A DNA stretch of 64,000 nt from Moniliella sp. 'wahieum' (Eukaryota), in contig RSEE01000005.1 of the NCBI GenBank assembly GCA_003971905.1, positions 1,116,001 to 1,180,000 on the forward strand, read 5' to 3'. Below are positions 7,521 through 61,602 of the stretch, in pieces. The position numbers and the translations under genes were made by a program. Position 1 is the stretch's first letter. Every line of letters starts with the position of its first letter. The notes below the pieces were generated by a model that was given only the letters and a program-made list of their open reading frames with translations, was not told the DNA's origin and made no database searches.

Positions 7521-8306
7521 TAAAGCTTCAAGCTTAATGGCCGCTGGTAGCAAGCGGGAGCGGTGGGGGGGGGGAAAGCAGGCTTGGGAGTTGCCTCTTC
7601 TCTTATGCGTGGCCTCCAGCCTCCAGCTTCAACGTCTTTTCAACGCCCTCAGACCGACCATCTGTATACCAACGTTCAACCCAGTCAGCCCACCGTCATC
7701 GCGATGAGAGATTAGCGGCAATTAACCCCCAGGCCCCATTTGAGCACCATTTATTCACAGTGGGTTGTCTGGACTACCATGTCACGTCTGGTTGTGCCCT
7801 GTAGCTTTTGCACTGCTGCAAGTAGCTGATGCAAGGCGGGTCGGAGTACGATGAGCTGCGTGAGATCTGAGAAGAGAGATCACGATTATAATGGCTGCTC
7901 CGATCTTAAATGACGTTGATGACGCGTGACCGCGTCATCGCAGAGCAGATCACAGTTGGTTCTCACACAACAAGTCATGCATCGTATCATGCATCTTGCA
8001 ACGTGCCTCCTCGATCAGTACATGCATGTCACAGGTCACGGTCACATGCACAGGTCACGGGTCGCCAGCGTCACGTGGTGTGTCACGTTCGGGTTCCAGC
8101 CTGTTCCAGCTTTATTCGGACTTTTTCCCTGTACCAGGTTCCGGGTCCGATAGGTCCAGCAGGGTTGGACGCGTTGCGATGTGTTTCTATCTATACACGA
8201 CGGAGGTGCCACCTACTGTGACATGATGTGACAATTGCCCAAACTATGGATATATGGCAGTGACTAGTTACTAGTGACTAGTGATCGAGCGCTAGTGATC
8301 TAGTGA
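7521..8306. repeat. Island of 7-bp-period TNA-[palindromic tetramer]-TNA micro-arrays
   Basis: TAA-AGCT-TCA-AGCT-TAA 7521-7537; TGA-GATC-TGA 7861-7870; TGA-CGCG-TGA ~7920; TGA-CTAG-TTA-CTAG-TGA-CTAG-TGA 8261-8284. Confidence 0.8.
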
Positions 8307-9545
8307 TATGAGGCCCTCTCTGTATAGATTCTTGGCGGAGCCGTGAACGGGGGGGGTTATTCGCCGCAACCGCCCTCATTAATCATTCAGATGGTCTGGT
8401 TCGAAATATTAGGTATGGCAGTCATGCTCATCCACAACAGCTGTGCCCTGCAGATGGTTTGCTTAATTACACTCGCTTTATGATCGTCGGCATCCCACGG
8501 TTCGGCCATGGTGCTGACAGGAAAAGCCAAAGGCCGCATTTAGAACATCTCCCGCATTCCCTTTAACCACAAGCCAACGACGATGCAACAATGTTCTCAA
8601 GCAAGGGGAAGAGCAAGGATGGCGGGCTCCGTATTAACGTGAAGCACGACCCATTTTTTCTCACAACATTCTCACGCCCCCGCCCAGGCTGCTTCCCTTT
8701 GCTGTACTATCCCCCTGTTGTCTAAGCCCCATCTCACTTGCTGCTAATGAACGTTGAACATGAACGTTGAGACATATTGACAGAGCGAAGCAGAGGAAGC
8801 AGCCGAAGCCTGCGAAGTTCCCTGCGGCACAAATACTATCATCCGATAGCACTTCCTCGGGCATCATGTCCCATCCTTCTCTTCTATAAAAGTCGGGGTA
8901 TGTGCTGCGTCTTTATCAGCGTCGCAATCCTCAGTAATATAGCACTGTAAAAAAACAGGCGCGACGAGAGCAGGAAACTATATGATAATAATAAGACGAT
9001 AAGGGAAACGACCACCCTCTCCTTTGCGACGCCAGTGAAGCCACAGAAGGGTGACTAGTGGTCGCACACGCTGTCTACTAGCGCCCTGTTAATAGCTGTT
9101 AACACAGAGCTGACAAAAGGGCAAAGGGAGGACGAAAGAGTCTGCTGCAAGCTCCAAGTTCCAAGCTCCAAACGCGTCAAGCTCAGGAGGCCTTAGGCTC
9201 AAAAGGGCGAGAGAAGATCGGTGATATATGATAGACGACGAATAAGAGGGAAGAGTGGCAAGGACGTTGAACACTCGTGCGTCTCTCTCTTTTTTGTTTC
9301 CATATAGTGGGCATGCAGTACGACTTGTGGCTGTAAAATGTAAAGCTCCACCCAGTCACATTGTTGACAAAACACATCGACTGACGAGACACTATTGTTG
9401 GAGTGTGGTGGCATGTGGCACCACTTGGTGTGATGGCTGGATCGGCCATGTCGCTGGCAAGCGGAACTGGCTATAGAGCTCCGCAACTCGCGCGCTCCGG
9501 ATTGGTTACCGTCGCGCCCTCGTTCCCCTCCTTCCTCTTCTCCCT

Positions 9546-9749
9546 GTTGCATTGAAGGTTGGACTAGCGTCAGGAGCTTACAGAAGATATCTCTGACTGT
9601 TCCCACCCTGCACAGGTGAGCTTCCTGTTCTCTCTCTTCCTGCTCTCTTCTGCTTCTGGCGCTTGTCCTTGTCCATCGGTTGCATTGAAGGTTGGACTAG
9701 CGTCAGGAGCTTACAAGAAGCTATCTCTGACTGTTCCCACCCTGCACAG
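9546..9749 (+). repeat. ~70-bp direct repeat (9546-9615 and 9679-9749), each copy ending in a branch site plus 3' splice site
   Basis: GTTGCATTGAAGGTTGGACTAGCGTCAGGAGCTTACA(A)GAAG..TATCTCTGACTGTTCCCACCCTGCACAG occurs twice; the spacer starts with GTGAGC and is pyrimidine-rich. Confidence 0.9.
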
Positions 9750-59660: not shown

Positions 59661-60893
59661 ATGACCAGTGCTGCTCCCCCGCCGCCACCGGCTCTGCCGC
59701 GCCCCCGCCCTCCCCCCGCCGCATCGGAACCCAATCCCCCTCCAGCGCCTTCGGTCACTGCGGGCGTGAAGCACGCGCCCGATGCCAAAGCAAAGGCGCT
59801 GGAGAAGCAACTGCTGCTCTGTCGCTCTCTCGCCCTGCGTATGGGACCCAACTACCAGATCGTGAAAGTGATTGGAGAGGGGCGTACGGCTCGGTCGTGG
59901 CAGCCAAGCACGTGCCCACTGGCACCAGTGTGGCCATCAAGAGCATCCATCCGTTTACCAACCGACTCATGGCCATTCGAACGTTGCGGGTGATCCAACT
60001 GCTTCGGTACTTTCAAGAACAGCATGCGTGCCAGTACATTGTTGCTCTGCTCAATGTAGTGCATGCGCCGAGCTACGAGCAGTTTGACCACATTTGTCTC
60101 GTCCAAGAGCTGATGGAGGCCGACCTGGCCAAGGTGCTGCGGTCCCAGACAGTCACCGAGGAACATGCGGCGTACTTTACCTGGCAAGTGCTCTGTGCGC
60201 TCAAGGTGTTGCACAGCGCCGATGTGCTGCACCGTGATCTGAAACCGTCCAACTTGCTCATCAATGCCAACTGCGACCTGAAGATGTGCGACTTGGTCTC
60301 TCGCGCTCTCGTCTTGACCGCTGCCAACATTGACCAAGCGACCGGGGTGGGCTTCATGTCGGAGTATGTCGCCACACGCTGGTACCGTGCGCCGAGATTA
60401 TGCTCACATTTTGCCAATACACCAAGGCGATCGACCTTTGGGCCGTGGGCGTGATCCTGGCGGAGATTCTGCTCGGTCGTCCGCTCTTTCCAGGGAAGGA
60501 CTACCACAATCAGATGGCGCTCACGCTCGACGTGCTTGGCACACCCAAGATGCAAGAGATGCTGCCGATCCAGTCGCGTCGCACGCGCCAGTACTTGACC
60601 AGCATGCCCATCCGGCCTCGCGCCAACTTTGCCACCCTCTTCCCTGCCGCCTCGCCCGAAGCACGCGACTTTTTGCAGCGCACGCTCCAGTTTGACCCGA
60701 CCAAGCGTCTGACCGTCGACGAGGCCCTAAGCATCCCTTTGTTCATGGCTACTGCACCGACACTCCCCAGGTCACTGTCCCTTCCCTCCCGCAGCAGTTC
60801 TTCCACCTTGACCTCAAGACCGATGTCCAGACCGAGGAGGTACGGCAAGAGTTGTGGAACCAAGTATCCACGTTCCCAGCCATGATAGGATAA
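59661..60893 (+). CDS. Divergent Fus3/Kss1-type MAP kinase (Kpp6-like paralogue) with SEY activation motif
   Basis: VIGEG(A)YGSV, VAIK, LVQELMEADL, HRDLKPSNLLINANCDLKMCD, FMSEYVATRWYRAP(E)IML, YTKAIDLWAVG, RPLFPGKDYHNQ; ends ...QELWNQVSTFPAMIG* after frameshifts. Confidence 0.9.
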
Positions 60894-61602
60894 CTACCTA
60901 CTCTTGTCACCTACCACCTGCCAGCCATCTCCCTCGCTCCTTCCCCCTCATTCCCTTTCTTGCACACCATACCCCCTCTCTCTTACGACCGCACTTTTCT
61001 TTAACGCTTTTGCTCTATATCCCATTTGTGGCGCCCCCTTTTGCCTGCTTGGGCTTGGGGCCGCGTGCTATTCCTATTCCCTTGATGTTTAATTTGGGTT
61101 TTGTTTCATTGGCACATTCTGGTCAAGGTTCTTGGTTGGGGCAAGGGAGGTGAGCCCCGGGAGCGATGAACGCGATCCACGTACAGTAGATAGCACGCTT
61201 CGCTTCTTTGTACGCACAGCGCGTACTTGGACTTGTGCATCGCCGTATGCACAGAGAACTGGTGAGCCTCACCGCTGAGCAGACTCAACCTTGCCCAACA
61301 TTGGCTGGAGCTAGGTTATGCATGTTTTTGAGGCCACAAAGTGTTGGCTTAAATTGGGCATTTGGGCTCCCCGGCTTACATCAGCACTCCTTGTGCCGTG
61401 TTCTGCCCTGCCTGCCATGTCCCATGTCACGTGTCACATGTCACTCATGTGTCAGCCTGCCGTCCATGGCCCCGCGCAGCAACTTGTAACACTGGGCCAT
61501 CCAAACGCACGTCCATCGCACGCATCGCCAGCAGCGGCACCGACCCCCAACCATTGTCTCCCTATCCACACTCCACCCCGCCTCGCACCACCATCCCCCG
61601 CC

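Follow-up and report, generated by a model that had tools for sequence, protein, structure and literature searches.

Palindromic joints have an established route of formation in DNA ends that are folded back or capped by a hairpin and then opened off the tip, as in the P nucleotides found at V(D)J, Transib and hAT joints, and the associated target-site duplications (TSDs) measure 5 base pairs (bp) for RAG and Transib and 8 bp for hAT. Transposons of the PIF/Harbinger type that have a TNA triplet as their TSD prefer promoters, and the mutational signature of the type IIA topoisomerase Top2 is a direct duplication of 2-4 bp, not a palindromic core. NuwaII elements, PIF-Harbinger (PHIS) DNA transposons reported from two basidiomycetes, have as their target TNA flanked by C and G (C-TNA-G) (PMC4482050). 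Cleavage by type IIA topoisomerases has a 4-bp stagger with dyad-symmetric flanks and is enriched upstream of transcription start sites, and the preference reported under etoposide is for C at the base 5' of the cut (PMC6813358). Here we describe a short noncoding element, TNA-[4-bp palindrome]-TNA (TNA-pal4-TNA), from Moniliella sp. 'wahieum' (contig RSEE01000005.1, positions 1,116,001 to 1,180,000; this whole stretch of 64,000 nucleotides (nt) is the window of the text below), for which a literature search of limited coverage, directed at the grammar and at the array sequences, found no description.

Counts and anatomy of the TNA-pal4-TNA element

The TNA-pal4-TNA grammar is real and far above chance. 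The window contains 82 units, as against 6.6 ± 2.2 in 100 dinucleotide shuffles (maximum 13), and the excess persists if the noncoding DNA is shuffled by itself (81 versus 5.6 ± 2.4, maximum 15; 23 segments, 41,758 nt, 200 shuffles). Thirteen of the other 15 flank classes of the form aNc were at expectation, and TNG (31 versus 14.5) and GNT (24 versus 14) were mildly raised. All counts rest on this one 64-kb window, of which 33% was classed as coding-like DNA by a crude codon-usage mask; under this mask all 82 units are noncoding (82 of 168 occurrences of TNA-N4-TNA), and none of the 11 occurrences in coding-like DNA has a palindromic core. The 86 non-palindromic occurrences are at background (about 84, estimated from the neighbouring-lag baseline). 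The autocorrelation of TNA in noncoding DNA has a peak at lag 7 (168, over a baseline of about 90) that is due entirely to the palindromic cores and that is found neither in coding DNA nor with the control triplet ANT. A preliminary description of this DNA had noted palindromic cores, a 7-bp period and no multi-unit arrays within coding sequences, and in these respects it was borne out.

Only a core of 4 nt is strongly enriched: the sequence between two TNA triplets was palindromic in 82 of 168 cases at this length, compared with 22 of 83 at 2 nt (the chance level), 5 of 100 at 6 nt and none of 82 at 8 nt. Around the A....T hexamers of noncoding DNA (n = 219), the only constraint was on T at position -2 (110) and on A at position +2 past the hexamer (119), with background composition farther out. 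Exact period-7 arrays of at least two copies numbered 51 (3.3 in 20 dinucleotide shuffles), and their unit was a palindromic hexamer plus 1 nt in 27 arrays, the hexamer being of the form A....T in 25, for which chance would give about 2.7% by our own arithmetic. Identical palindromic hexamers recurred 21 times at lag 7 (0.46 expected from 50 shuffles) and 8 times at lag 14 (0.38 expected), versus 3 times at lag 6 and never at lag 8.

The 82 units make up 65 loci, of which 53 consist of one unit, eight of two, three of three and one of four. The typical locus is a single 10-mer, mostly extended to 12-13 nt, and not one of the many tandem arrays noticed at first, although 25 exact arrays of two or more copies do obey the rule. 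The cores are not limited to the 12 palindromic tetramers that contain G or C, as had been supposed, but include all 16, with none dominant across the 65 loci (our own tally); the A/T-only cores (7 versus 0.75 ± 0.84) occur in single units only, and their fold enrichment is about that of the other cores. The idea that cores switch while the spacing is kept was contradicted, since adjacent A....T hexamers at lag 7 were the same in 20 cases (0.1 expected) and different in none (0.42 expected). With cores constant within an array, neighbouring arrays of another core are to be counted as separate elements.

In 38 of the 53 isolated elements the two flanks have the same free base N; in 9 the two bases are complementary, and the other 6 have some other combination. 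An element with identical N is at once a direct repeat (of period 7, N included) and, through its hexamer, an inverted repeat. Of all 82 units, 58 have C or G as N in both flanks. A scan for TNA-initial direct repeats of W nt, joined by j nt that reverse-complement the last j nt of the repeat, found 70 cases with W = 5 and j = 2 (0.22 expected). The most common form of the element is [TNAxy][y'x'][TNAxy], a 5-nt duplication together with 2 nt that reverse-complement the neighbouring 2 nt. Minor forms (W,j) were (5,1), with 8 cases versus 1.1 expected, (6,2), with 4 versus 0.03, and (6,3), with 2 versus 0.02; there was no case of (5,3).

Matching nucleotides beyond the 10-mer follow the same form. 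Among the 38 isolated elements with the same N, exactly 2 matching nt are present on one side only in 13, with left and right extensions (L,R) of (0,2) in 7 and (2,0) in 6, and 8 more have one further base, for a total of 21 of 38 that are 12- or 13-mers of this form or its mirror image; of the remaining elements, 6 are shorter and 11 longer. Outside the 10-mer, lag-7 identity (0.68 and 0.58 at first) reaches the background of 0.29 in the space of 3 nt; the single elements are thus discrete, and not the cores of long arrays that have decayed.

Multi-unit arrays have lengths of 18, 20 and 26 nt, which equal 7n+5 or 7n+6, and variant units within them are duplicated blockwise (two copies of CATATCA followed by two of CATGTCA; two or three copies of TGATCGA followed by two of TAATCGA). 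Single-strand DNA folds predicted for eight arrays place T-N-A in a 3-nt loop closed by the halves of the hexamer. These are weak hairpins, with energies of between -2.1 and -9.0 kcal/mol and values of z that range from +0.27 to -3.59 (below -3 in two of the eight).

Possible origins of the elements

Our preferred, if tentative, interpretation, to which we would give not quite an even chance, is that the elements are the footprint of a mutational process peculiar to this fungal lineage, which acts at TNA sites and by iteration builds arrays, and not a sequence-specific binding code. It is supported by the numbers of TNA flanks (82 versus 6.6), by the strong enrichment of the 4-nt core alone, by cores that never switch and by the absence of units from coding-like DNA. 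At an accessible intergenic or promoter site of sequence T-N-A-x-y, a break or strand switch would cause the 5 nt TNAxy to be copied again, and the neighbouring xy would serve, in reverse complement, as the template for the two bases y'x' that join the copies. The joint would form as it does where a DNA end that is folded back, or capped by a hairpin, is opened two bases away from the tip, and one event would produce the 12-mer [TNAxy][y'x'][TNAxy]. A single such event would yield the hexamer palindrome AxyY'X'T, the same N on both sides, the 7-nt period and the commonest length of 12 nt, all without selection. Repeated events, or ordinary slippage once 5-10 nt are repeated, could then generate arrays of 7n+5 to 7n+6 nt. 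The anatomy and statistics of the elements are observed directly, and from them we infer that there was a break, that an end folded back or formed a hairpin, and that an agent was at work. Of the two explanations offered in the preliminary description, snap-back or templated synthesis is the one that fits better, in that N is copied (38 of 53), the y'x' join is inverted (70 versus 0.22), all 16 cores are used and the loci cluster in promoters and in one gene-free stretch.

The strictness of the TNA anchor would imply an enzyme that reads sequence. A DDE nuclease of the PIF/Harbinger-ISL2EU-Spy superfamily with specificity for TNA is one candidate for the agent; others are a transposase that forms hairpins and a dimeric enzyme that makes staggered cuts. 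It is conceivable, though on balance doubtful, that an enzyme of the lineage (a domesticated or active TNA-specific DDE nuclease, or a staggered-cutting dimer) repeatedly breaks accessible promoter DNA at T-N-A and that fold-back repair writes a 7-nt scar consisting of the 5-nt duplication and 2 inverted nt. If this were true, promoters would continually gain perfect palindromic hexamers of any sequence, singly and in arrays, as a built-in generator of raw material for the sites of dimeric factors and as a readable record of break positions.

Several observations weigh against a footprint of this kind, and some of them (a one-sided donor, the rarity of GGCC, the lack of plain duplications and the arrays of 20 nt) are a misfit to a standard transposase. 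The mirror form, in which the join is templated from the TN side, was found in 3 cases versus 30 for the xy side, and 2 of the 3 also meet the xy-side form because their core is TCGA; a donor restricted to xy is not what one would expect of a symmetric transposase that leaves a hairpin on each flank. Plain duplications (5,0) are near chance (8 versus 4.4). Five of six two-unit arrays are exactly 20 nt long, not 19, and differ in phase, which is a slight misfit to 7n+5. The negative association of left with right extensions is based on small numbers (both at least 2 nt in 6 elements versus 9.3 expected). Pfam scans of 242 of the 257 stop-to-stop open reading frames (ORFs) of at least 110 amino acids in the window (the 15 left out overlap the gene of translation elongation factor 3, EF3) matched no transposase family, and no agent was found among them. 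The data of one window allow the direction of events, insertion versus decay, only to be inferred, and the position in promoters suits a function equally well.

It is very unlikely that the elements are the classical footprints left when a cut-and-paste transposon with a TNA TSD of 3 bp (PIF/Harbinger-type, such as NuwaII) is excised, in which two copies of the TSD would enclose 2 nt of each terminal inverted repeat. TNA with identical N (38 of 53) does resemble a 3-bp TSD, 2 nt from each inverted terminus would make a 4-nt palindrome, and NuwaII, with its TNA target, is reported from two basidiomycetes (PMC4482050). The core, however, should be fixed by the termini, yet all 16 cores occur. 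NuwaII terminal repeats start with GG (PMC4482050), which would make GGCC the expected core, but GGCC is one of those least often seen (2 of 82 units, 2 of 65 loci). Nor are the C...G flanks of the NuwaII target seen, the duplication is most often 5 nt and not 3, and no transposase was found in the 242 ORFs scanned.

Other types of joint were considered and rejected. A 7-bp TSD at a palindromic target needs at least 2 matching nt on both sides, which was seen in 6 of 38 elements, and a symmetric 5-bp TSD of the form x'TNAx needs (L,R) = (1,1), seen once in 38. A 3-bp TSD with P nucleotides from both flanks predicts the core T-N'-N'-A, not the free palindrome observed, and palindromes like those of retroviral junctions of two long terminal repeats predict a complementary N, which is the minority here (9 of 53).

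Microsatellite dynamics that require no enzyme are also an unlikely origin. Heptamers composed of a palindromic hexamer and one base would fold, on the nascent or template strand, with T-N-A as a triloop and slip more readily than others, and single elements would be collapsed arrays. The predicted folds do place TNA in the triloop; short tandem repeats are in excess generally in the window (63 versus 13 at period 6, 14 versus 1.1 at period 8, and 24 of the 51 period-7 arrays non-palindromic); variant units are duplicated in blocks; and arrays of the same form (TCACCGG, TGATCGA) are present in bacterial DNA. The latter were encountered in a metagenome scan for ATCGATNATCGATNATCGAT, which matched at least 123 stretches; those 123 were tabulated for TNA-pal4-TNA, motifs were listed for 9, and L059 alone was checked in detail. 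There was no usable fungal relative among the matches listed, and L059 is bacterial (dense long ORFs), with between-gene heptamer arrays of the TNA+pal4 form at 60-175 and 3999-4045 (TCACCGG/TCACGGG, an inverted pair with GTAACCA/GTGACCA units, and TGATCGA in four to five copies).

A physical property of DNA should be general, yet three-unit heptamer arrays in viral contigs (both strands) numbered 9 stretches for ATCGAT, 7 for TTCGAA, 6 for CTCGAG and 8 for GTCGAC, versus 50 and 19 for two non-palindromic controls, and thus neither the palindrome nor the A..T outer pair is favoured in the contigs tested, with the caveat that replication and repair of phage and bacterial DNA differ from those of fungal DNA. 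The A....T preference is not general, as it is not favoured in the viral contigs. Within the window, a hexamer followed by N and a half-hexamer occurs 49 times for the outer pair A..T, whereas C..G (13), G..C (8) and T..A (7) are hardly enriched. The unit of the period-7 arrays obeys the TNA+pal4 rule in 25 of 51 cases, with no such rule at periods 5, 6 and 8 and no enrichment of palindromic units among the period-4, 5, 6 and 8 arrays of the window. The single elements are not set in decayed arrays, and the hairpins are weak, both of which speak further against slippage.

Genomic distribution and gene context

The loci are clustered (variance/mean of 3.6 per fully noncoding kb, with 16 loci at 10.08-11.34 kb). 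The principal arrays, clusters and relatives of the element are as follows, in forward-strand positions of the window.

3445-62667: full span of all 65 loci (82 units)
6644-6713: period-8 relative, (TGAGGGCC)n, a 6-nt direct repeat TGAGGG plus 2 inverted nt, CC
7521-7537: TAA-AGCT-TCA-AGCT-TAA, the first locus cited in the preliminary description
8261-8284: array TGA-CTAG-TTA-CTAG-TGA-CTAG-TGA, in which N varies and the hexamer ACTAGT is constant
9966-9989: period-9 relative, (TGACTATAG)n, TGA plus the 6-bp palindrome CTATAG in 2.7 copies, a 6-nt direct repeat plus 3 inverted nt
10084-11342: hot cluster, with 16 loci packed into about 1.3 kb where a gene-free stretch ends, just upstream of a Pro/Ser-rich ORF, and with 11 cores (GCGC, CGCG, TCGA, CTAG, CCGG, TGCA, CATG, GTAC, AATT, ACGT, GGCC)
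10250-10278: array (TGATCGA)2(TAATCGA)2, hexamer ATCGAT
10730-10749: array of TCACATG in 2.9 copies, preceded by two copies of the one-base variant CATATCA
18429-18448: array of TCACATG in 2.9 copies
18563-18582: array of TGACGCG in 2.9 copies, with the single unit TCACGCGTCA next, at 18623
20175-20197: array TCA-ACGT-TGA-ACGT-TCA-ACGT, in which N alternates between C and G, resulting in a perfect 20-nt palindrome
27691-27732: adjacent arrays of TCATCGA in 2.9 copies and TTAGATC in 2.4 copies, 170-200 nt upstream of the ATG of an M24 peptidase
27867-27899: array (TGATCGA)3(TAATCGA)2, about 345 nt upstream of the ATG (at about 27524, minus strand) of the same M24 Xaa-Pro peptidase
30249-30274: array of TGACATG in 3.7 copies, in a divergent promoter of about 400 nt between ATGs at 30088 (minus strand) and 30490 (plus strand)
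30339-30358: array of TCACGCG in 2.9 copies, in the same divergent promoter (30088/30490), with the single unit TGAAGCTTCA next, at 30428

Each of the arrays reported in the preliminary description carries the core given for it; the exception in detail is the array at 18775, which is without TNA on its outer flanks. The period-8 and period-9 arrays (6644-6713 and 9966-9989) are satellite forms of the scan by W and j. At 61415-61445, upstream of the Fis1 gene, two copies of CCATGTC are followed by GTCACGTGTCACATGTCAC, and an E-box-like CACGTG lies amid TCA-CATG units. The unlinked arrays at 10250-10278 and 27867-27899 have in common a composite in which units with G precede units with A, (TGATCGA)n(TAATCGA)2, within unrelated flanks; this could be due to parallel history, to conversion between arrays or to function. 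A search for dispersed repeats found arrays of the same unit with unrelated flanks, which indicates that the arrays are not copies of one mobile element, and their interpretation as parts of a dispersed mobile element was rejected.

Wherever gene starts are readable, elements lie 80-400 nt upstream of ATGs, with three loci upstream of the M24 peptidase ATG (about 27524), three in the 30088/30490 divergent promoter and one about 80 nt upstream of the start of an F-box ORF (43497). The elements might be selected cis-elements, in which a dimeric or polymerising protein, or a requirement of DNA shape or nucleosome exclusion, reads a pair of TNA half-sites at a spacing of 7 bp with a symmetric core between them; arrays would then be homotypic promoter clusters. 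This is rather improbable in our judgement, despite the dyad symmetry of T-N-A...T-N-A round a 4-bp core at the sole strongly enriched spacing, the clustered position 80-400 nt upstream of ATGs with none in coding-like DNA, and the two unlinked ATCGAT arrays that share the (TGATCGA)n(TAATCGA)2 composite in unrelated flanks. Hexamers found among the elements include ACGCGT and AACGTT, which equal the MCB box and a bZIP T-box, known fungal or plant sites. On the other hand, all 16 cores are used and only T and A are fixed, with no defined consensus of core or half-site, and we know of no factor that requires a palindrome of any sequence. Full dyad symmetry is lacking, in that N is identical in 38 of 53 isolated elements versus complementary in 9 (and otherwise different in 6); the extension is usually of 2 nt on one side only; and the hairpins are weak, with z below -3 in 2 of 8.

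The other explanation of the preliminary description, a dimeric factor or a hairpin shape, fits less well. Because the flanks are dyad-symmetric around the 4-bp core, a dimeric factor could still be reading the TNA-N4-TNA spacing, but it would not explain the identity of N or the acceptance of any palindromic core, and the predicted hairpins are weak. Artefacts of assembly or sequencing are extremely improbable, as the elements occur in noncoding DNA alone, differ widely in sequence and are located among intact conserved genes; to our knowledge, no sequencing platform writes 7-nt palindromic insertions.

If the interpretation of the elements as repair scars holds, they constitute a clean, countable mutational signature, of a kind that the literature search did not find for fungi, with a one-triplet anchor and an exact geometry, blind to the core and restricted to open intergenic DNA. 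Such a signature would point to a nuclease or repair route not yet known, and its positions would map, from sequence only, the DNA that is accessible or prone to breaks. It would also show a way in which promoters can acquire palindromic motifs and short repeats with no selection involved. Should the elements be bound by a protein instead, the factor would be reading symmetry and spacing, not sequence, which would be unusual in itself.

The window is nuclear DNA of a basidiomycete of the Ustilaginomycotina, with a G+C content of 59%. It includes the EF3 gene (about 33.1-36.2 kb), of which the best named relative is that of Tilletiaria anomala (74% identity over a 374-residue piece), followed by those of other smut-related yeasts (66-71% identity). 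Pfam matches were obtained for Mic60, an MGA2/SPT23-like factor, the M24 Xaa-Pro peptidase, an Sds3-like protein, EF3, the F-box protein, AP-2 alpha-adaptin, an LSM protein, 14-3-3, a protein kinase, Fis1 and a ZNF598-like RING protein, which are an ordinary housekeeping set. Rfam and tRNA scans of the window found nothing.

Between the Mic60 gene and the Pro/Ser-rich ORF lie about 8 kb (3100-11300) without an ORF that matches a protein family; this stretch has almost no ORF of at least 110 amino acids, its G+C content is down at 50-52%, and it is unusually long for this fungal group. It holds 30 of the 65 TNA-pal4-TNA loci. The ORF at its end (11367-12332, starting near 11.4 kb) has a Pro/Ser-rich translation of low complexity. 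Within the gene-free stretch there is a tandem duplication of about 133 nt (9533-9749; copies 88-97% identical), part of which has an inverted partner at 4453-4518.

Repeats of other kinds are found elsewhere in the window. An ORF of 134 codons without a family match contains about 5.4 tandem copies of a 33-nt (66-nt) repeat in which GTCA/ACGTC words abound (37246-37422), and the hexamer GATGCG is repeated about 20-25 times (45727-45877) in ORFs without a family match downstream of the F-box gene, possibly as a coding dipeptide repeat. A 27-nt repeat of 3.2 copies (16071-16156, 94% matches) is situated in a long minus-strand ORF (15290-16879) with a weak RING-finger match. Homopolymers include a run of 31 C with few interruptions (5479-5509) and one of 17 G (55911-55927).

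Comparison with known systems

The elements resemble the hairpin joints of RAG, Transib and hAT in combining a direct duplication (mostly of 5 nt) with a few nt (mostly 2) that reverse-complement the adjacent flank. Unlike those joints, they take the inverted nt from one side only (TN side 3 versus xy side 30), have a T-N-A anchor at a fixed offset and a near-invariant insert length, and are iterated into arrays; moreover, no such transposase was seen in the window (242 of 257 ORFs). With NuwaII (PMC4482050) they share a TNA triplet in which N is free and a basidiomycete host group, but the GG..CC core is rare among them, the C/G flanks are absent, the duplication is mostly of 5 nt, and 16 cores are used.

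Like type IIA topoisomerase sites (PMC6813358), the elements have dyad-symmetric flanks round a 4-bp core and an intergenic or promoter position, but the flanks are T-N-A, versus C beside the cut. A Top2-like dimer with a 4-bp stagger would explain both the dyad TNA-N4-TNA and the promoter location, whereas the published preference for C, as trapped by etoposide (PMC6813358), is a misfit.

Heptanucleotide microsatellites and promoter tandem repeats are similar in their head-to-tail 7-nt units of 2 to about 4 copies, their intergenic location and their blockwise duplication of variants. In contrast to them, 53 of the 65 loci have fewer than two copies, and the palindrome-plus-TNA rule is without parallel at other periods or in other flank classes. 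Bacterial intergenic heptamer repeats likewise have a 7-nt period, and some units of L059 (TCACCGG, TGATCGA) fit TNA+pal4; however, the bacterial arrays are long, form inverted arm pairs beside gene ends and belong to few families per genome, whereas those of the fungus mostly occur singly, with every core represented. The elements of the window are related both to short tandem repeats and to templated or palindromic repair joints, without belonging to either group alone.

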